Origin: a virus
Strand: one strand, 5' to 3'
Length of the DNA stretch: 64,000 bases
Virus record (IMG/VR): IMGVR_UViG_3300024999_001421
Shown: piece after piece, positions 5,036 through 21,521 of the stretch
How positions within the stretch are numbered: position 1 is the stretch's first letter
Layout of the letters: the number at the start of each line of letters is the position of its first letter
Position numbers and translations under genes: made by a program
The notes under the pieces: model-generated
Seen by the model: only the letters and a program-made list of their open reading frames with translations
Told to the model about the DNA's origin: nothing
The model's database searches: none

Positions 5036-6110
5036 GCAAAAAAAATATTAAAGTTTAGCCATAATTTCCGACATTGCATATTTGATATTGTTTAACTTAC
5101 TTTGCTCTATATCAATCAGGTTAACGAGTGCTAATGTATCCTCGCTGGACATATTATATTTACCGGACAATTCCCAGACTAACTTTTTAATCTCTCCAAG
5201 TCTGGATTGCTTTAGTTCATCGAAGCGTTGCGGTTGTGGTTTTGGTTGATTAGGATTAATCACTGTACCACCTCCACCCACTCTGCCGCTCTAAAATGCT
5301 CTGCCGTCCACTGACAGGCATCCAACGGCGAAGTTCCCCAGACTTCCTTCCGATCCACCCCAGCAGGGATAGTAGTTTTGCCTATGCGTAAGTCGGGGAA
5401 ATGGACTGACAATCGGTATTTGCTTAACCCAGGTGTATTTGTACCTGTCGGCGTTTTGCCCCGCTGTATCGGGTTGCTAGACGTGTTTATGGTCATTGTG
5501 TTGCCTCCAATGTGCTTTCCTCTAACATCTTCCTAAGTTCCCTCGCCACGTTACCCAAAGCATCCGACTTACCACGATAATAACCTTCTAGGTACTCTTG
5601 GTTATTACGTTTCATTATTTCCATTTCGGTCTTAGCATTTATAGAACTCGTGGCGTAGTTTTGGATTAAAATCTCTATGTATTCCCGCATATAACGACCT
5701 CCCTCATAGTATTGGGGTAATCCCCTCCCGAAACCCTCCTGCTAGAGAGTTTAGGCAAGGGACGTTAGTCCCTGCAATTATCCTGTAAGATGCAAATACC
5801 AAATTGATCTACCAGACTTATATCTTTTGTTTTCCTTGGTTACAAACTTAGTAACTTTAAACCTTACATAATTACTTCCATCCCTTCTAACACTGCCCGA
5901 AATGTTATTTCCTTTCATATACTTTTTTACTGCCTCGGTTGCATTTTTAGCTATTACTACCGCATCATCATTAAATAAACCTTTGTTTCCATCATAGATT
6001 AAATATGTATTAGTCATAAATCTAACCCCCTTTTAATTTTACCAAAATCCCCTCTTGTGACACTTTGGTAAAACTGCGGCGTTAAGGTGCCGCTTGCCTC
6101 ATACTTGTTG

Positions 6111-7468: not shown

Positions 7469-8116
7469 AATTTTAGCCTCCCTCATAGTTTTAACTAAAC
7501 CCTCTCGCAAAAGGATTTAGGTAAAACTGCGACTTTAGGTAGTCGCGGACCTGCTACCTAGTCCAATATTTCCTTTGATTTTGCCATAAACTAAATGCCT
7601 GAGATTCGGTTGGAGCAATGTTAAGTAAGGAATTATAATTGTAGTAATTGCCCGACCTTCCTATTTTTACTTGAAGTAGGAATTTATTACCATATGAAAA
7701 TACGGTGAATATATTTTTAAAACTCTTGAACTCGTTTACTATCATAATATCCCTCCTATATTTACCTCAACAAAACCCCTCTCTAAAGGAGTTTTGGCGA
7801 AGCAGGGACCGGAGTCCCTATTCCTTGCACATCCCAGAAACTTGTCGCTTGTGTATTTGCATTTCTATAGTAGCAAGTTCCAAGTATGCTTCTACTTTTT
7901 GATCCCAATGTGCCGGGACTTGCGGATCGTTGACAATTTCCAGAATTTCAAGCGCATCCTTCTTTTCTTGCAGTATTTCTGAATCTTGAAGCGTCTCAAG
8001 GTGCTTCCAAATAGATTCCATGAATATTACTTTTTCCTCAAACATAATTATCATCCTCCTTAGATTTTACGTCCAACCCCTACAGGGACCAGAGGTAAAA
8101 CCTAGCGAGTGCTAGG

Positions 8117-8440
8117 TTAGTGCCTGCCATATTCTATGGTTAATTCTAAAGTGTCCTTTTCGACATCTCTCCTTAATTTTGCCGTACTCCTACAGTCTTT
8201 ATTTTCCTCTTTCCAATCAATACCCATTTGGCGAAAATATAATGTTACTTCGGTCAAATCACCCTTAAGCAAGTCCTTCCATGTGTAGTCAAAGAAAATT
8301 AACAAGTCTGTACAGTAGCAGTCGCATTGCTTAACCGCTTCGCGCAGTAACGCTTCTTTTATCGACTGCGTGTTTTGTTCTTCACCGTAAGAATTGCAAA
8401 CCTGAAGTTCCTTAATGTTTACTTTCGGCATAATCATCAA
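8117..8440 (-). CDS. Hypothetical protein
   Basis: ORF with AAGGAG RBS. Confidence 0.6.
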   Translation of the reverse strand: MMIMPKVNIKELQVCNSYGEEQNTQSIKEALLREAVKQCDCYCTDLLIFFDYTWKDLLKGDLTEVTLYFRQMGIDWKEENKDCRSTAKLRRDVEKDTLELTIEYGRH

Positions 8441-8659
8441 TCTCCTTTTAGTTTAAATTCACGTCAATTCCCTTGTGGGTACTCACGCAAACCTAAACTA
8501 CCATGCTTCCCCTTTTCTGCACCTCTAGCGGATATCCCTTCGGGTCCAGTGTTCGCTTGCCTTGGCTGGCCCTTTCGGATTATGCCGACTTCGCTGGTTC
8601 GCGCTGTGGGGTTTTTGTATTCTTTTCTGCGTGTGCGGTGCGCTTTGTTGCTGTGGTTT

Positions 8660-8717
8660 CCCACTATGGCCACTTTCGGCCATTTCGACTTGTTACCGTC
8701 AAGTCTCGTCAGGTGGG
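8660..8717 (-). ncRNA. Type I hammerhead ribozyme
   Basis: CCCAC CUGACGA GACUUG-ACGGUAA-CAAGUC GAAA UGGCC-GAAAGU-GGCCA UA GUGGG: complete core and three perfect stems. Confidence 0.93.
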
Positions 8718-8718
8718 T

Positions 8719-9003
8719 TTATGCTGTCCTATAGTGTTCAATCGCTCCTGTGCTAAGTTGCATTAACAGGTTTGTCATGTGACTTAACTTCCAACTTTCT
8801 ACTAGACTTGAAGTTCCGAACAATCTGTCTATTGCTACATATCTTCCGTACCAAACCATTAGTTCGATTGGGTTTTTTCTATTTTTGGTGTAGTAGTCGA
8901 AGTTTTCATTAAACTTTCTTGCCGCCAACTCCAGTTCTTCCTGTAATAATGCGTTTTCAGCTTTGTTTAGTTTTTTTATGCTGATGCTTTCGGCTGTTTT
9001 CAT
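8719..9003 (-). CDS. Hypothetical protein flanked by two hammerhead ribozymes
   Basis: 94-aa ORF with AAGGAGG RBS. Confidence 0.7.
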   Translation of the reverse strand: MKTAESISIKKLNKAENALLQEELELAARKFNENFDYYTKNRKNPIELMVWYGRYVAIDRLFGTSSLVESWKLSHMTNLLMQLSTGAIEHYRTA

Positions 9004-9055
9004 ACTGTCTGCCTCCTTCGATATTCTGTTTTCGTGTTGTGCAGCTTACTTTCAT

Positions 9056-9106
9056 CCTGCTATGGGGTTTTATCCCCATTTCGCTGTCTACAGCTCATCA
9101 GGCAGG
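9056..9106 (-). ncRNA. Type I hammerhead ribozyme
   Basis: CCUGC CUGAUGA GCUG-UAGA-CAGC GAAA UGGGG-AUAAAA-CCCCA UA GCAGG: complete core and three perfect stems. Confidence 0.93.
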
Positions 9107-9238
9107 CTAGAATTTAATGCTGTGAAATACGCAGAAGTTGCAAAAGTCGATTAACTTAGTTCTGTTTAGGTTTACCGCTTTTTCTAGTCCTACCGATTTG
9201 GTGTACTGCTTGATTTTGCGCTTTAGCTGTTTGGTCAT
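9107..9238 (-). CDS. Small hypothetical protein (43 aa, MTKQLKRK...), not in ORF track
   Basis: AAGGGGG RBS; stop codon abuts hammerhead stem I. Confidence 0.5.
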   Translation of the reverse strand: MTKQLKRKIKQYTKSVGLEKAVNLNRTKLIDFCNFCVFHSIKF

Positions 9239-9430
9239 TTTGTTTCCCCCTTATTTAATTTGTAGCTAATAAGTAACCCATGTATCCGATTCCTACCAGG
9301 AGAGCGATTCCCATTCCTACCGGGTGAAACATTGTAGTTACTGCTAATGCTGTGGCGGTGTATTTAAGAAGTTTTTTCATGTCTGCGCCTCCCGTTCGTG
9401 TGTTGCTGTGTTCCATGTGCTTATACTATC

Positions 9431-9495
9431 ATCTGGATACCCATGCCGTAAAGCCTCAAATAACCTTATATTCAGCCATTTATGGGTATCCAGAT
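9431..9495. promoter_or_regulatory. 14-bp inverted-repeat pair, candidate operator of the leftward operon
   Basis: ATCTGGATACCCAT (9431-9444) / ATGGGTATCCAGAT (9482-9495), next to an RHH gene. Confidence 0.6.
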
Positions 9496-9506
9496 TATCC
9501 TGCCTG

Positions 9507-9707
9507 CTAAATACTAGCTGTATCTGCCTTTTTCAGCGTTTTTTGAAGTTCCGCAAGTTCTTTTTTGATAGCATTTCTGGCTATTTCGGATGCTGGAACC
9601 CGCGTATCTGCTGATATTTCGGCTAGTTTTGCTTTATCCTCGGTTGACAGGCGCAGGTTAAAACTTTCCCAGCCATCTCTATATTTTTCTTTTCTTTTTG
9701 CCGACAT
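9507..9707 (-). CDS. Ribbon-helix-helix regulator
   Basis: SFNLRLSTEDKAKLAEISADTRVPASEIARNAI; GGAGGTGG RBS. Confidence 0.7.
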   Translation of the reverse strand: MSAKRKEKYRDGWESFNLRLSTEDKAKLAEISADTRVPASEIARNAIKKELAELQKTLKKADTASI

Positions 9708-9967
9708 TTTGACCACCTCCAAAGACAGTATACTACATGGGCTTCCATATGGCAACCCAGCCATTAGACGGATCTGCATTTGCCGGAAATGCTATATATA
9801 GAAGGAAAACGGAAAGTTTTGCTTGAAAATGGGCTTTGGCCGTGGTAAAATGGTAGTGTGGGGGTTTTATACCATGTTGTTTTTACCTACTGTATTGAGT
9901 AGGGATATATCGTTTTCGAGGCACCTGAGAGGGTGCTTTTTGCTTTACATAGAAGGAAGGTGAATTT

Positions 9968-10486
9968 GTGTCTGACAAAGATATTGTTTTACAGGAGTTC
10001 GCCAAAACGGTGAATCGTTTGAAATCAAAGGGCGTTGACTTGACAAATACCTATTATGGTTTCCGCGAGGATATTTCCGAAGAGCAGGATCGCGTTCTCT
10101 GGCAGCCTGAAAAGAAATTCGTAAAAGTTTTTCCTGACGAACTGGCTAATGTTGTAACGATGCTTGACGATGAAGGAAAACGCCTCAGCGGTGCAGAGCT
10201 GGCTATTGTCATGTTGCTCATGGGACATATCAGCTACAACAGCGGAATGTTGACAAAAGGCGGCGGTAACCCGGTTAGTCAATCAGACATTGAAAAGATT
10301 ACCGGGTTTAATAGGATTACCGTTGTTAAGAGCATGGACAGGTTAGTTCGTAAAAAAGTTTTCGCTCGTAACAAGGTAGGCAAAAGTTATCAATACTTCG
10401 CAAATCCGTACATCTTTTTCCGGGGCCGGTTTATAAACGCGACTCTGGTGGATATGTTTAAAACCTACAACGCTAATGATAGTTAG
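9968..10486 (+). CDS. RepL-like replication/maintenance wHTH protein
   Basis: wHTH (SQSDIEKITGFNRITVVKSMDRL) followed by YFANPYIFFRG. Confidence 0.65.
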   Translation: MSDKDIVLQEFAKTVNRLKSKGVDLTNTYYGFREDISEEQDRVLWQPEKKFVKVFPDELANVVTMLDDEGKRLSGAELAIVMLLMGHISYNSGMLTKGGGNPVSQSDIEKITGFNRITVVKSMDRLVRKKVFARNKVGKSYQYFANPYIFFRGRFINATLVDMFKTYNANDS

Positions 10487-10543
10487 TTTGCGGTATCTTA
10501 GAGTTAATAGAGGCATCTAAAGCCTAAAAAGTGTCGCTCATGC

Positions 10544-10629
10544 CTTGTGTTTGCTGGACTACAACCGACTTATAACATGTAGTCTGTAGTATACCTATAG
10601 TGGCATTTCATGTAGTCTGTGGACTACAT
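10544..10629. repeat. Iteron-like repeats downstream of the RepL-like gene
   Basis: CATGTAGTCTGT at 10576 and 10609; TGGACTACA at 10555 and 10620; palindrome ATGTAGTC-TGTG-GACTACAT. Confidence 0.6.
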
Positions 10630-11196
10630 ATCAAAGATACCTCTTAGGCCAATAGCGACAACGACTAGAAGGTGTTTTGAACGCAATAGACTCCTCTTAT
10701 TACTCTAAGATGTTTTGGTAACTATGTTTTAAAGTGTTGGGAGTGCTGAAAAGTGACATTATTTCAAGCCAAAGTTCATTGTGTGAAATGTAATAATGCA
10801 ATGGAAGTAACGCTAACAAAGAAAAGTTATGTAAAATTTGTTTCTAATATATTTCAGTGTTATTTTACGTGCAATGACTGTTTGAGAGAAGCAGGACATA
10901 AATTAGCAAAGAAAAATACGGCATTGATGGAAATGGAAATAGAAATGCCTGATTGATTTTGTAGGTACTAAACCACTTAAAACAATTTTAAGCGGCTGTA
11001 CGAGGCTGTGAGAGGTGAGAAAAGCATGGGATTTGGTTTTCCGACAGGCAAGGACATACTTAAAGTTGTAGTTGTACTTGTTTTTGTGTCAGCATTGGCA
11101 GGTGCAGGAGTTTTGAAGCTGATACAGATTATGTGAGAATTGACCTTTGCCGATGGTGAAGGTGAGTTTTCGTATTATAGGAAGGAAGTGAGTTGA

Positions 11197-11658
11197 ATGC
11201 CAGCAGGAAGACCGACGAAGTACAAGGAAGAATACAACGAACAGGCGTATAAATTGTGCCTGTTGGGAGCAACGGACAAAAGTTTAGCTGATTTCTTTGA
11301 GGTTGACGAAGCTACTGTAAATAGATGGAAGCTGGAATATCCATTATTTTGCGAGTCCTTAAAGAGAGGGAAGGTAATTGCTGACACGGAAATAGCGCAA
11401 AGTCTGTATCAAAGAGCGAAAGGTTACTCACATCCGGAGGACAAAATATTTGTCCATGATGGTCTGCCGGTTATTGTGCCAACAGAAAAGCACTATCCAC
11501 CAGACACGGGCGCAGCCATGGCCTGGCTAAAAAATCGGAAACCTGATTCGTGGTCTGATACACAAAAATTGGAGTTGACAGGCGCGGACGGCGGACCTGT
11601 AGATGTTCGCATAGCTGGTATGTCGGATGCGGAGTTGGAGCAGTTGTTGGAGGACTAA
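11197..11658 (+). CDS. terS: Terminase small subunit
   Basis: GRPTKY N-terminus, HTH, PPDTGAAMAWLKNR motif. Confidence 0.85.
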   Translation: MPAGRPTKYKEEYNEQAYKLCLLGATDKSLADFFEVDEATVNRWKLEYPLFCESLKRGKVIADTEIAQSLYQRAKGYSHPEDKIFVHDGLPVIVPTEKHYPPDTGAAMAWLKNRKPDSWSDTQKLELTGADGGPVDVRIAGMSDAELEQLLED

Positions 11659-12808
11659 TTACCCCGAAAGTCGTTTAGCTATGTACGCGCTGTACCTATT
11701 TACGTTCTCATAATGAGCATTATGTCAACTAGATAAGGCCAAAAGTGCCGTATTTCCTGGGTTTTTTGGATATTCGCTTGGTTGTTGGTTCCATGTCCTG
11801 CACTGGTGGACGTTTTACCGTATCTACCCACCTTCGCAGGCGCAGGGTTGCGACACTGTATTGTACGCACAGAGCGCAGCGCATACGCGAGCAGGGACGC
11901 AAGCGCACGTATTTAGATAGGATATTCGCCAAAAAGAGGGGGTGGGGGTCAAACACCCCCGGTATGGATTGGCGGGACTCCGGCGGCGGGTAACAGTACC
12001 TTATACTATCACCATCCAGACAGTTACGTATTTTACTAAACTCCGAAATGTTATGTAATTAAGTGGAAAAAGGAGATCTGATAATGGAAAGTAAAACCCT
12101 TGATATTGACTGCATCAAAACAGCAAAAGCAAATATCTCTGACATTAAAGTGTTCGGTGATAGAGATACATTTGCCCTGCTCTGTAAGGCTTCTAGCGAG
12201 TCTCAGGGATGGATGAAATCAACTAAGGTATGTAATGTATTTGGTGGTTGTATCGTGCAGGTATCTACCCAACAGAAGAATCCTGACGGAAGTTATGCGG
12301 TTGCTGAGGCACTTACCTTTATTCCCGGTGTGCATATGGACAAGAAGTCTGAACCTAGAAGATTTGTTAGTGCTAGTTTTGTGTACTTGCCACAATATGA
12401 ATAAATTTAACCGAGGACGGTGTAAATAATGACAGAACAAATCAAAGAATCATCAATTGAGGAATATGTAAACGCTTTTATGAATTTAAAGCACGAGACT
12501 CTTTCCAACGCAACCGCCGCTATCGTTAAGAAAACTCAGGAACTATTGGCGGCGGGTGAAATTGACCCCATAGATAGTGACGTTTCGAAAAATCCAGTCG
12601 AAAAAAATATTCCTTTGTGTTCATATTTTACCAGAAGTGTTCCTGCATATTCTCCATTATTGAACTGTGACGGTTCTGGTGAAATTATACTCAAAGACAC
12701 TCGCCCCATATGTCCTGACTGTAAAACCATTATGGTCAAAACTCATATCGAGTTAAGTGATGGTAGTGGTTGGTTTACTGGTTGGGCATGTGATTGTAAA
12801 TATGAGGA

Positions 12809-13832: not shown

Positions 13833-15431
13833 ATGACTGACCAACAGAAGGAAAAGAAAAAACTATCCGCTCAGAAGTTAAGGGAAAAAGCGGCAGCGAA
13901 AGTTGAATTAGAATATCGTAAATCCTCTAAGAGTGTAGAGTATTTCATAGATAAATACGCTTATATTGAGGATAGAGATGTTCCTGACCTAGTTGCTAAA
14001 CTTAATTTATGGGACGGTCAGAAGGAAGCGTTAAGGAAGATTATTGACAGTAAGTTGTCGATTATTCTTAAAGCTAGGCAGTTAGGTTTTACTTGGCTAT
14101 CTCTTATTTACGGATTGCACGGGGTTATATTTAGACCTGGATATTCTGTTGTTGCTCTATCTAAGAGGGAAGAAGATGCTAAGGAACTTATTAGGCGTAT
14201 ATGCTTTATTCTTAGGTACCTACCTTCATGGATGATTCGTCACGTTAAGGGTACTCCTAAGCAATACCCTAACCCTACATGGGATTCAACAGTATTGTCG
14301 GTTACTATCTACCATAAGGGCAAGGAACCTGCTGTTTTTAACGCTATGTCTGCTGGTCCTGACAGTGGACGTTCTTTCACGGCAAACCTCGTAATACTCG
14401 ACGAATGGGCGTTTCAGATGTTCGCTAGAGATATTTGGTCTGCTGCTTACCCGACTATTAATCGTCCTACTGGTGGGCAGGTTATTGGGTTGTCTACCGC
14501 TAAAAAAGGTACCTTATTTGAGGAAATATTTTGGAAGGCGTACAACGGTGAAAATACGTTTACGCCTATATTTATGCCTTGGAGTACCGACCCTAGACGT
14601 ACCCAGGAGTGGTATGAGCAGGTTAAAAAAGACTTACCTCATAGTTATATGGCAGAGTATCCAGCGACTCCAGAAGAGGCGTTTACTGCCGGTGAAGGGC
14701 AGTTCTTTAAAGAGTTTCGTCGTGATGTGCATGTCGTTAAACCGTTTAAGATACCGTCCTGGTGGAAACGGTTCTGCTCTTTAGACTATGGACTTGATAT
14801 GTGTTCTTGTCACTGGTGGGCAGTATCACCAGAAGGGATTATGTATGCTTATCGTGAGTTATATCAACCAAACTTAACACTTAGTCAGGCGGCGAAAAAG
14901 ATTATCTCCATGACACCCAAAGACGAGAAAATAAGTTATACGGTTGCTTCTCCTGACTTATGGAATAGACGGCAAGAGACAGGGACAAGCGGCAGGGAGA
15001 TAATGAACCGTGCCGGGCTAAATAACCTGAGAAAAGCAAAGCATGAGCGTAAGGCAGGGTGGAGGGCGGTAAGAGAGTATCTGTTAGCTAGGGAAGAAAA
15101 GCAGGATATTATGACAGATGAAGGTATTAAGACGGAGACTATTTTTACTGCTAAACTAAAAATATTTGATACCTGTAAAAATATGATACGTTGCTTGCCG
15201 TTACTTGAACATGATAAAAACGACTCTGAGGATGCGGCAGATACTCCACACGAGGTCACGCACAGCAACGAAAGTTTACGCTATTGCGTAATGTCAAGAC
15301 CTCCCATTTCTAAGGATGAAAAGTTTAACTTTCCCGATGATATGTCGTTATCTGAGCAGTCAGCAGTTTTAAATAACATTGCGTTTGAGAAAGAATACGA
15401 GAAGTTACAGGAACATATTGTAGGTTTTTAA
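13833..15431 (+). CDS. terL: Terminase large subunit
   Basis: KARQLG Walker A, VILDE Walker B, LDYG nuclease motif. Confidence 0.95.
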   Translation: MTDQQKEKKKLSAQKLREKAAAKVELEYRKSSKSVEYFIDKYAYIEDRDVPDLVAKLNLWDGQKEALRKIIDSKLSIILKARQLGFTWLSLIYGLHGVIFRPGYSVVALSKREEDAKELIRRICFILRYLPSWMIRHVKGTPKQYPNPTWDSTVLSVTIYHKGKEPAVFNAMSAGPDSGRSFTANLVILDEWAFQMFARDIWSAAYPTINRPTGGQVIGLSTAKKGTLFEEIFWKAYNGENTFTPIFMPWSTDPRRTQEWYEQVKKDLPHSYMAEYPATPEEAFTAGEGQFFKEFRRDVHVVKPFKIPSWWKRFCSLDYGLDMCSCHWWAVSPEGIMYAYRELYQPNLTLSQAAKKIISMTPKDEKISYTVASPDLWNRRQETGTSGREIMNRAGLNNLRKAKHERKAGWRAVREYLLAREEKQDIMTDEGIKTETIFTAKLKIFDTCKNMIRCLPLLEHDKNDSEDAADTPHEVTHSNESLRYCVMSRPPISKDEKFNFPDDMSLSEQSAVLNNIAFEKEYEKLQEHIVGF

Positions 15432-15606: not shown

Positions 15607-17721
15607 ATGGACTGGAAAAAACCATTTCGTGCGTTAAAAAAGAAGGTGAGAGAAATAGTAGCACCTGCTGTAGAATACGATCAAGAGACCCTTGATTTGC
15701 TGAAATACTGGCAAGATCAGTTCGAGATTGACCGTCAAACGAAGAAAAAGTACGATCTTCTTATGGATTCGTGGGAAAATATGTATAACGGTAATCGCGA
15801 ATTCGAGAACGTCAACAATAGGCAAGATAAGGAAGCGAGAACAGTTGTTAACTTCCCTCGCCTAATTATAGAAGCGTTAATTGACATGACTATTCCTGAC
15901 CATGACTTTAAACCTGTTACCGCTGCCGATGAAGTGCCGGTTAATGCTTTAAAAAGTTACGTCGGTTATGTGCTGAGAAGTTCTTCACCTTCACTTGAAG
16001 AAATGAATATGTCAGACGAGCGCAGAGTAAGTAAACTTGGCGGTACATTCAAAAAGGTTCACTGGAATAACAACATTAAACGTGCTGGATATGTCGGTGA
16101 GATTGAGATTAGCAACCCTCACCCGAAGGATATTATACCTAACAAATCATCTATTAACTTCGGCGACGACATGGAGCATTATCATCATCCGGTTAACCGT
16201 ACACAAAAGTATATTCTTCGCAAATGGAAGGATATAACGAGTGACATGCTGGAAGAAAAGGCAATTCTGTATGCCGAGTATGACGAGATATTGGGCGACC
16301 AAAGAATAACTACCGTTACCGACACTACCGGAGTTTCTAAGGATACGGGACTTGGCAAGTATACAATTATTGAGACTACCTACCGCGACGATGACGGAGA
16401 TATTTGTAAGTTGTGGTGGTCCGGTGATTTACTGATTAAGCACCTGCCGAAGTTCTTTTATCGTAGGGACGAGGAAACAGGCGAACCCTATATGACTGAA
16501 ACTATTGAAGCAGGATCTATGTTGAGAAAGAGTATAGACGAGCAAGGTAATCCTATCTACTCGAAAATAGACAGCGATATTGAAGCAGAACACTACATAC
16601 CTACTTGCTGGGATATAGTCTACCAACCGTTTATTATGCGTGATAAATGTTGTTGGGGTATATCTATTATGGAAGATGTTTGGGACTTGCAGGAGAGTAT
16701 TAAGAAAGCAGTGCATATGTATGAAGAATCTTTCCTTCGTGGTAGGAAGAAGATTTTAACCGATTCTCTTGAAGTGCAAAGAAAACTTATGGACCCAACA
16801 TCAGAGATAATCCATGTTAATGATCCGAATTCTGTCAAGGAAGTTGATTTAAGTACCAATATTGACGGTATTCAATTGGTTGATAAATTCAAAGAATGGA
16901 TGCAACTTATTACCGGCGTAACCGATGCTTCATTAGGAGTTCATCAACCAGGAGTAACTTCCGGAGATCAAGCGCAGGCATATATCAGTCAGTCAAGTAA
17001 TAAATTAGCGATTAAGTCTGCCTATAAGTCAACCTCATACAAGACTCTTTACCGCACTATTGCCGAGTTTGCATTGGCGTTCTGTGATGATGATAGACCT
17101 TTTCGTATTACAGGAGAGAAGGGCGAGAATAAATACGGTCAGTTTAACCGCTTGTCTATGCTTCGTGACGTTAACGGTGACTTAATTTATCCAGACTTCG
17201 ATATTGAGATTAGTGCAGAAGTCGGATTCATGAAGAATAAGTCGGAAATGATGAATTCTATCGTGTCTCTTGCAGGGCAGGGACGTTTTGAACCTACTCC
17301 TGGAAATATGCTGATACTGAAAATTCTTGATAAAATCGGTGTTCCGCACCTTAAGGAAGTTATTGGGCAAATGGAGCAGGATATACAGCAGGCACAGGAG
17401 ATGCAGGCAAAGCAGGAAGAGCAGGCGAAGCAGATACAGGAACAGCAACTACAGCAGAGTACCGATATGATGCTTGCTAAACAGCAGCATGAGAAAGAAC
17501 TTGCTGTTACGAAACAGCAGGGAGAACTAAACCGCCAGCAGCAATCGCACGACCTTGAAAGTAGTAAAGAGGCTATGAGCGGCGAGTTGCAACAGGGCGC
17601 AGTTATGAGTTTTGTGGACAAGTTAAATCAGATTAAAGAGAACGATCCTGATACCTTTGTTCAAATCATGCAACTACCGGCAGAACAGCAGGTGCAGGCG
17701 GTAATGAGTATGGTAGGTTAG
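15607..17721 (+). CDS. Portal protein (P22-like, Q-rich C-terminal coil)
   Basis: Follows terL; 704 aa; ITGVTDASLG...TSG motif. Confidence 0.85.
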   Translation: MDWKKPFRALKKKVREIVAPAVEYDQETLDLLKYWQDQFEIDRQTKKKYDLLMDSWENMYNGNREFENVNNRQDKEARTVVNFPRLIIEALIDMTIPDHDFKPVTAADEVPVNALKSYVGYVLRSSSPSLEEMNMSDERRVSKLGGTFKKVHWNNNIKRAGYVGEIEISNPHPKDIIPNKSSINFGDDMEHYHHPVNRTQKYILRKWKDITSDMLEEKAILYAEYDEILGDQRITTVTDTTGVSKDTGLGKYTIIETTYRDDDGDICKLWWSGDLLIKHLPKFFYRRDEETGEPYMTETIEAGSMLRKSIDEQGNPIYSKIDSDIEAEHYIPTCWDIVYQPFIMRDKCCWGISIMEDVWDLQESIKKAVHMYEESFLRGRKKILTDSLEVQRKLMDPTSEIIHVNDPNSVKEVDLSTNIDGIQLVDKFKEWMQLITGVTDASLGVHQPGVTSGDQAQAYISQSSNKLAIKSAYKSTSYKTLYRTIAEFALAFCDDDRPFRITGEKGENKYGQFNRLSMLRDVNGDLIYPDFDIEISAEVGFMKNKSEMMNSIVSLAGQGRFEPTPGNMLILKILDKIGVPHLKEVIGQMEQDIQQAQEMQAKQEEQAKQIQEQQLQQSTDMMLAKQQHEKELAVTKQQGELNRQQQSHDLESSKEAMSGELQQGAVMSFVDKLNQIKENDPDTFVQIMQLPAEQQVQAVMSMVG

Positions 17722-20549: not shown

Positions 20550-21521
20550 ATGGCAGTTTTAATTCAAGAAAGCGGAGATTTTGAACAGTTAGTTGGGAAA
20601 TATGAACATGCGCTCTTGGAATTTTGGCAGGACGGTTTTACCGATGCTATTCAAGATAGTATGATTGACGAGTTGTATACTCCTGAGCAATCAGATAACC
20701 CCACTGAGGCAATCGGTGAGATGGTTGGGGCGATTGACTACAGTAAGTGGAACGGTGAATTCACTTATGGCACCATGAAACAAGGCGATACGAAGATCTG
20801 GACCCCAATCGTGTGGCAGGCGGGCATGGAGTATGACAGATTCTTACTGTCTAATGCTAAACTTATTAATTTAAAGGATGATTTTTCCGGTTTCTCTATT
20901 GGCGCAGCAAGACACCGCGAAGCGTGCGCATCCGGTTTACTTACTTATGCCGACCAGACAAGTTTTATGGTTAACGGAACTCCTGTTAACTGGACTTTGA
21001 CAGCCAATGGGTTGCCGCTTGCTTCAAACGCTCAGACTTCTGCTAACTATGGAAGCACTCAGGATAACTTAGAGGCCCTAGAACTCAACGACGAGAATCT
21101 CGAAATTTTATGTCAAAAAATGTTTGATGTTAAGGACAGTTCGGGCAAGGACGCAAATCTTCAACCTGATACTTTAATTGTGCCTACAGCCCTTCGCAAG
21201 AAAGGTTTGGAATTAATCGGCGGTGAAGGTAAAGTAGATTCTTCCGACAACAACCCGAACATTTACAACGGTTCGATGAAATTGATTGTCTATAAGCAAT
21301 TCCGTCGTCAAGCAGGAAAGACCGGTCAACCATGGTGTGTTATGGACTCTAAGATGGCTAAAAAATCCATGAAGTGGATTAATCGCCTAGAATCTGGGGA
21401 TAAATACGATATTATCTCTTGGAAGAATATGGAGAATCAGGTCTGGAAAGTAGGTTCCATAATGTGGTATTCTTGTGGCAGTAAGTCGTGGAGGCCTTTC
21501 CAATTCAGTATTCCTGTGTAA
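20550..21521 (+). CDS. Major capsid protein
   Basis: 323 aa; PDTLIVPTAL motif; position after scaffold. Confidence 0.85.
   Translation: MAVLIQESGDFEQLVGKYEHALLEFWQDGFTDAIQDSMIDELYTPEQSDNPTEAIGEMVGAIDYSKWNGEFTYGTMKQGDTKIWTPIVWQAGMEYDRFLLSNAKLINLKDDFSGFSIGAARHREACASGLLTYADQTSFMVNGTPVNWTLTANGLPLASNAQTSANYGSTQDNLEALELNDENLEILCQKMFDVKDSSGKDANLQPDTLIVPTALRKKGLELIGGEGKVDSSDNNPNIYNGSMKLIVYKQFRRQAGKTGQPWCVMDSKMAKKSMKWINRLESGDKYDIISWKNMENQVWKVGSIMWYSCGSKSWRPFQFSIPV

Follow-up and report, generated by a model that had tools for sequence, protein, structure and literature searches.

The early polycistronic mRNA of phage T7 is processed by RNase III into single-gene mRNAs. Self-cleaving RNAs have also been described at phage genes. 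Perreault et al. (2011, PLoS Comput Biol; PMC3088659) reported clustered hammerheads flanking genes in prophages and phages, demonstrated that three clustered phage arrangements cleave in vitro and that one does so in E. coli, described pseudoknot-stabilised forms of the ribozyme, and proposed that long phage transcripts are cut into single-gene mRNAs, with circular or spliced products also possible. In the work of Weinberg et al. (2015), as summarized in PMC4604425 and PMC6765202, ribozyme-associated neighbourhoods were used to discover pistol, hatchet and twister-sister, and pistol is given as common in Firmicutes and environmental DNA. Hammerheads also occur in retrozymes and viroid-like circular RNAs (Cervera and de la Pena, 2020; PMC7229834). 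According to a 2019 review, the role of bacterial and phage self-cleaving ribozymes is largely elusive (PMC6765202).

We analyzed a 64,000-nt stretch of viral DNA (IMG/VR record IMGVR_UViG_3300024999_001421; hereafter the window), in which two hammerheads on the coding strand, spaced by 396 nt, enclose one ORF, as in the phage clusters reported by Perreault et al. The earlier note on this DNA, made from the letters alone, had claimed two complete hammerheads with different stems, the same AUA triplet and the same orientation, and both direct reading and a descriptor of our own bore this out: minus-strand positions 9106–9056 (HH-A) and 8717–8660 (HH-B) each form a complete type I hammerhead. 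HH-A comprises a 5-bp stem I (CCUGC/GCAGG), the core CUGAUGA followed by GAA, a 4-bp stem II (GCUG/CAGC) with the loop UAGA, a 6-bp stem III (AUGGGG/CCCCAU) and A17 at the cut site, with cleavage predicted between 9061 and 9060. The corresponding parts of HH-B are CCCAC/GUGGG (stem I, 5 bp), CUGACGA and then GAA (core), GACUUG/CAAGUC with the loop ACGGUAA (stem II, 6 bp), AUGGCC(G)/(U)GGCCAU (stem III, 6–7 bp) and again A17, and its cut is predicted between 8665 and 8664. In both RNAs, three helices surround the conserved core (C3-U4-G5-A6-N7-G8-A9, G12-A13-A14 and H17, not G), the core-adjacent pairs are free of mismatches, and G10.1-C11.1, A15.1-U16.1 and the AUA triplet are present. The order of elements is that of type I (stem I 5' strand, core, hairpin II, GAA, hairpin III, H17, stem I 3' strand), with stem I open and stems II and III capped. 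HH-A begins 0 nt past the TAG of a 43-aa ORF (ORF43, 9238–9107, minus strand), and HH-B begins 1 nt past the TAA of a 94-aa ORF (ORF94, 9003–8719, minus strand), matching the spacing of 0–1 nt given before; the predicted cuts, and the release of a 396-nt RNA with the RBS and the whole 94-aa ORF, were likewise reproduced.

The full-motif descriptor, which demands the core, GAA, A15.1-U16.1, H17 and all three helices, matched HH-A and HH-B as the sole sites on both strands of the 64-kb window, for which a mean of 0.007 matches is expected by chance (300 Markov shuffles). A looser scan for the three hammerhead topologies revealed no further sites in the window (null expectation, 0.14). Folded alone, each RNA adopted the hammerhead as its MFE structure (−19.3 kcal/mol, z −3.1, for HH-A and −21.8 kcal/mol, z −3.3, for HH-B). 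Rfam scans of the whole window, at gathering thresholds and at E ≤ 1, returned no hammerhead and only a tRNA and weak chance matches, and pistol, twister, hatchet and HDV-like ribozymes were absent from these scans as well. The curated hammerhead thresholds were not reached in a 641-nt scan, in which the best scores were 16.8 bits with HH9 (cut-off 52) and 18.5 bits with RAGATH-1-hammerhead (cut-off 56.3). We count this miss against the curated models and not against the motif, because covariation in a subfamily and a covariance model of our own, described below, support the hammerheads.

We searched viral contigs with a pattern that took its fixed positions from the HH-B stem I, core and 3' tail alone and left stems II and III free. 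The search returned ∼20 copies on 18 contigs from many environments. In these copies 94.3% of the cells of stems II and III are paired and 11 pairs carry double changes; the 59 double-changed cells compare with 18 in shuffles and at most 22 with slid partners, and none of 500 shuffles scored as high. HH-B thus belongs to a common phage type I subfamily whose stems covary strongly. Loop II of the subfamily (YGGU) is able to pair with the tail (ACCA), and in contig L034 this loop II/3'-tail pseudoknot covaries, with both sides changed to AACAGU/ACUGUU. In HH-B itself the tail AAACCAC (8659–8653) is able to pair with loop II, the pseudoknot joining GGU of the loop to ACC of the tail by just 3 bp within a subfamily range of 3–6 bp.

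A covariance model built from 20 phage type I hammerheads (model R1), with HH-B in the training set and HH-A left out of it, was run over 338 kb comprising the window and its relatives. The training members HH-B and the homolog in relative L004 scored 78 and 82 bits, respectively; HH-A, absent from the model, was recovered at 27 bits (E 3e-5), and so were type I variants in relatives L051 and L054.

Two side observations concern the HH-B type. L025, an unrelated viral contig, carries three such hammerheads in tandem (10167–12017, minus strand), 733 and 1055 nt apart, with stem I and tail identical among the three, partly since the search pattern fixed both; fragments excised there would have ends fitting one hammerhead, unlike those of the window. 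Subfamily members at L051:6125–6189 (+) and L124:9935–9995 (+) have U15.1-A16.1 in place of A15.1-U16.1, a flip common to two phages whose ribozymes differ at other positions; it may represent either a natural variant that is active or a defect that both share.

A pattern search with HH-A returned nine hammerheads that resemble it solely in the stem I and core fixed by the pattern, so these matches are no evidence of homology. No true HH-A homologs were found; the other contigs with HH-A have it in identical form, and the other contigs carrying ORF94 belong to the same phage with both ribozymes identical, so no covariation is to be had from them. HH-A lacks the usual loop II/3'-tail pseudoknot, and its lone candidate tertiary contact is a 4-bp pairing of UAGA in loop II with UCUA just 5' of stem I, which could be due to chance. 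Because this is the only candidate contact, HH-A may be slow at cellular Mg2+ and the slower of the two. HH-A, identified by reading, descriptor, MFE fold and model R1, and HH-B, identified by reading, descriptor, MFE fold and subfamily covariation, are in our judgment genuine type I hammerhead ribozymes and probably active.

From the two cut sites follows a predicted excised RNA of 396 nt (8665–9060, minus strand), with a 5'-OH at 9060 and a 2',3'-cyclic phosphate at 8665. It includes the RBS GAAGGAGG (9019–9012) and the entire ORF94. The self-pairing of this RNA is not unusual (z −1.74; 8 of 100 shuffles fold as well). The ORF94 product matched neither Pfam nor PHROG, and a word-indexed protein search returned only ORF94 itself; back-translation searches of viral contigs with ORF94 and with a 210-aa ORF returned nothing. 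Three remote homologs share 42–54% identity with ORF94. Its AlphaFold model (pLDDT 80) has three helices and matched nothing in the PDB at E ≤ 0.001. The closest homolog, in L060 (54% identity), is equipped with a promoter and an intrinsic terminator of its own and lacks ribozymes, and in that phage the ORF94-type gene appears to be made monocistronic by ordinary signals.

The window belongs to a tailed phage known from groundwater metagenomes. Structural genes lie on the plus strand, with the large terminase at 13833–15431, the portal at 15607–17721 and the major head protein at 20550–21521, and exact ORF94 copies occur on groundwater metagenome contigs (ENA PRJNA268031, JGI 3300001041), the longest of 142 kb. 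A DNA search of the deposited phage collection with positions 7500–10500 gave no match. The ribozymes lie within a leftward run from ∼9780 to 4200 of small, mostly ORFan genes with strong RBSs, and every RBS-bearing ORF in this run is on the ribozyme strand. Reading of the sequence placed the likely promoter of the ribozyme transcript at 9423–9452 on the minus strand (TTTACG, 18 nt, TG-n-TAGTAT); it aligns with a perfect TTGACA-17-TATACT in relative L007, and a consensus promoter scan did not list it. The ribozyme strand has no terminator-like site from 9420 to 8400. With a likely promoter upstream and no terminator-like site down to 8400, it is plausible that ORF41, ORF43, HH-A, ORF94, HH-B and the following genes are co-transcribed.

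At most gene junctions of the leftward operon the RBS is immediately preceded by a long imperfect hairpin, which in some cases follows a short GC hairpin. Such hairpins lie on the minus strand at 8451–8498, directly 5' of the RBS of the gene that follows HH-B (start near 8437–8431), and at 8055–8116, 7746–7817, 7511–7556 and 6018–6110. They often read GCAGUUUUACC...GGUAAAA..., their stems stay paired despite sequence change, and among relatives the junction sequences are better conserved than the ORFs. In appearance they resemble sites of RNase III-type processing or stems that control translation. On the minus strand, a CA-rich stretch, ACAGCAACA..., lies behind the predicted transcription start (9385–9420) and again behind the HH-B cut (8626–8655). 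It recurs behind promoters and ribozymes of relatives and may be a shared 5'-proximal leader motif.

We fetched 20 loci from relatives whose terminases are 82–98% identical. Their early operon is mosaic, with variable ORFs and retained short junction sequences. HH-A and HH-B themselves are in none of these relatives, which bear other self-cleaving classes on the same strand and at the same gene junctions. Pistol ribozymes (46–67 bits) were found in L004, L005, L012, L016, L023, L053 and L056, and type II hammerheads in L005 and L023 (both identified by hand), L007, L016, L051, L054, L055 and L059. The type II hammerheads scored 36–47 bits with Rfam where scanned, the remainder being read by hand, and their loop I/tail pseudoknot covaries. 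The strict descriptor had missed hammerheads in the relatives, namely type II variants and forms with a bulged stem II, and these false negatives were recovered with Rfam and model R1.

In L016 the ORF43 ortholog is 87.5% identical in nucleotides up to the stop codon and a pistol starts at that stop, the place held by HH-A in the window. Pairs of ribozymes around one small ORF also recur. The order in both L005 and L016 is pistol, 68-aa ORF, type II hammerhead; in L004 it is type I hammerhead, ORF, truncated pistol; in L051, type I, ORF, type II, ORF, element X, a further RNA described below; and in L124, type I, ORF, element X. Because ORF43 has a hammerhead behind it in one phage and a pistol in another, and the nearest ORF94 homolog has no ribozymes, ORFs and ribozymes appear to assort independently.

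Several copies in the relatives are decayed. A pistol at L004:1603–1650 (−) is shortened by a promoter-like repeat, the type II hammerhead at L016:6570–6625 (−) has a mismatched stem I, a hybrid between two variants, and the core of a type I hammerhead at L054:7734–7805 (+) is degenerate. We read these as signs of recombination and turnover at the junctions, and they imply that not every ribozyme copy is under selection. In the structural-gene region of the related phage L008, a RAGATH-18 RNA at 11078–11141 (+) scored 62 bits (cut-off 44.9), which we take to be another ribozyme-associated motif in this phage group.

Comparison and covariation also identified a conserved structured leader RNA directly behind HH-B (∼8657–8441, minus strand). 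This leader starts just 3' of the HH-B cut and fills the ∼215 nt up to the next RBS. Using an invariant 19-mer, we gathered ∼22 distinct versions from viral and metagenome contigs. Across relatives the leader is 83–88% identical, and the ORFs on both sides of it vary. Its core of ∼103 nt (8611–8509) forms a multi-helix fold of 26 pairs, in which 97.3% of cells are paired across 20 distinct sequences; 42 cells are double-changed, compared with 14 in shuffles and at most 8 when slid. Rfam gave no match to the leader at E ≤ 10, and the leader was found only within this group of groundwater phages. A host search of reference genomes with the leader 19-mer gave 8 matches in unrelated phyla, which is chance level.

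Immediately 5' of the leader, ∼21 of the 22 variants have a known self-cleaver. Pistols fill the slot in 9 cases and type II hammerheads in 11; a type I hammerhead (the window) and element X take it once each. That three unrelated catalytic designs occupy one slot argues, from sequence comparison, that the cut at the 5' side of the leader is the selected feature, which in the window phage HH-B would supply. The leader could act as a 5' UTR that must have a free 5' end in order to fold, or as a small RNA set free between the ribozyme and the long hairpin at 8498–8451.

Element X is an 80-nt sequence in the slot just 5' of the leader, where the ∼21 other variants have a pistol or a hammerhead. 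It was found at L051:6604–6683 (+), the same as in L096, with a second copy at L124:10167–10246 (+). A three-way junction is predicted (AACCC/GGGUU, CUCCG/CGGAG and CAGGAGG/CCUCCUG), with a possible GUCUA/UAGAC pseudoknot. Rfam returned nothing for it at E ≤ 10, and blastn found no diverged copies. A pattern search gave 40 matches, about chance level for an 18-base pattern, among which only L124 is real. With only two identical copies there is no covariation to draw on, and we propose tentatively, as a possibility with the odds against it, that element X is a candidate for an undescribed self-cleaving RNA.

From these comparisons we consider it probable that the two hammerheads split a polycistronic early transcript into single-gene RNAs by co-transcriptional self-cleavage. 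The leftward early-type transcript would start near 9420 and carry both hammerheads, and during transcription each ribozyme would cut just after the stop codon of the preceding gene. The resulting pieces would be ORF41 with ORF43, ORF94 alone (396 nt), and the structured leader with the downstream genes, with HH-B also defining the 5' end of the leader. At each cut the upstream piece would retain, at its 3' end, the compact hairpins of the ribozyme together with a 2',3'-cyclic phosphate; the downstream piece would begin with a 5'-OH, and stability and translation could then vary from piece to piece. The freed stem I strand can pair downstream, as GUGG-GAAA-CCAC after HH-B and GCAG...CUGC after HH-A, and hairpins formed in this way at the 5' end might shield it or prevent re-ligation. 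The analysis shows the motifs, how rarely chance would produce them, the covariation in the family and the presence of other ribozyme classes at the same junctions; co-transcription, in vivo cleavage and an effect on expression are parts of the proposal that we infer. Self-processing of a polycistronic mRNA, as the earlier note had suggested, appears well supported by the comparison, since pistols and type II hammerheads take the same junctions in relatives and ribozyme pairs bracket single small ORFs there too.

The circular mRNA that the earlier note had added as a possibility fared otherwise and is unsupported. The 396-nt RNA would have to be joined end to end, by RtcB or by reversal of the hammerhead reaction, into a circular translatable ORF94 mRNA, which we consider very unlikely. 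Hammerhead products do bear the 5'-OH and 2',3'-cyclic phosphate ends used by RtcB, animal retrozyme RNAs of 170–400 nt that are flanked by ribozymes are circularized by RtcB (PMC7229834), and one predicted fold draws the ends together by pairing the 5' CAGG to the CCUG with which HH-B begins; that pairing, however, occupies core nucleotides. The 5' end reads GCAGG where GUGGG is required, and it pairs with CCCAC of HH-B at 3 of 5 positions. With such different stem I sequences a ligation-competent hammerhead cannot re-form, and hammerhead-catalyzed circularization appears unlikely. Joining by RtcB needs no stem I, but a Pfam check of the eight large ORFs of the window revealed no RtcB, and the RNA is mRNA-like in its folding (z −1.74) and not a self-paired rod. 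Moreover, relatives flank their ORFs with mixed classes (pistol and type II hammerhead), so compatibility of the ends is not conserved, and Perreault et al. (2011), who looked for circular or spliced products, detected none (PMC3088659). That a host RtcB-type ligase joins the RNA into a circle that evades exonucleases and is translated from the RBS within it strikes us as very improbable; we retain it at that level because RtcB-made circles from ribozyme-flanked RNAs are real in animals. If true, it would be the first natural circular protein-coding mRNA of a DNA phage.

The ribozyme boundaries (the ORF43 stop codon and the start of the leader) are precisely where homology with relatives breaks off, and the slot is filled by different ribozyme-plus-ORF modules in different phages, as expected if ribozyme-ORF-ribozyme were a mobile or selfish cassette, possibly moving via an RNA intermediate, whose ribozymes serve the cassette and not the phage. 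Against this, ORF43 precedes a hammerhead in one phage and a pistol in another and the nearest ORF94 homolog is free of ribozymes, so that ORFs and ribozymes are not co-inherited; no reverse transcriptase, integrase or target duplication was found at the cassette; and the entire operon is mosaic with conserved junction hairpins, so ordinary phage recombination explains the breakpoints. We judge a cassette very improbable. It is likewise very unlikely that HH-A and HH-B are inactive relics or chance look-alikes without a role. The subthreshold Rfam scores of both, the decayed ribozymes of relatives and the want of a clear tertiary contact in HH-A would fit such relics, but both RNAs have perfect cores and three uninterrupted helices, both lie on one strand and abut stop codons, 0.007 matches per window are expected by chance, and other ribozyme classes take the same junctions in relatives.

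The window case alone is one further example of the arrangement and interpretation published in 2011. As in the cases of Perreault et al., hammerheads of the same orientation lie close together and flank single genes or short blocks of varying identity, and the loop II/tail pseudoknot of the HH-B subfamily is of the type described there. Those cases were prophages of cultured bacteria (Clostridium scindens, Agrobacterium and Azorhizobium), whereas the window belongs to an uncultured groundwater phage, its bracketed gene is an ORFan, and its relatives show other ribozyme classes at the same junctions. The added interest lies in element X and in the interchange of ribozyme classes in a slot before an undescribed structured RNA. 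Closely related groundwater phages fill the same junctions with a type I hammerhead, a type II hammerhead or a pistol, and this interchange, above all before the leader, is unusually direct genomic evidence that selection keeps the cut. The phage group also offers a compact test system for the role of a ribozyme-made 5'-OH end on the downstream RNA.

Retrozymes share with the window two type I hammerheads that release an RNA of a few hundred nt with RtcB-joinable ends. The repeats of retrozymes, however, carry identical hammerheads whose ends fit, and their RNAs are highly self-paired and non-coding, whereas the window hammerheads differ, the predicted RNA is an mRNA equipped with an RBS, and the element occurs as a single copy within the operon of a DNA phage; the 396-nt RNA has neither compatible stem I ends nor the fold of a highly self-paired non-coding monomer. 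Hammerhead and pistol near each other and near phage genes are common to the window phages and to the neighborhoods of Weinberg et al. (2015); there the relation is one of neighborhood association, whereas in the window group the classes share one orthologous slot before one conserved leader. As in T7, an early phage transcript would be cut between genes, and the operon has long junction hairpins of RNase III look. Unlike T7, two junctions of the window would use self-cleaving RNA in place of a host nuclease, which would make the cutting there independent of a host enzyme.
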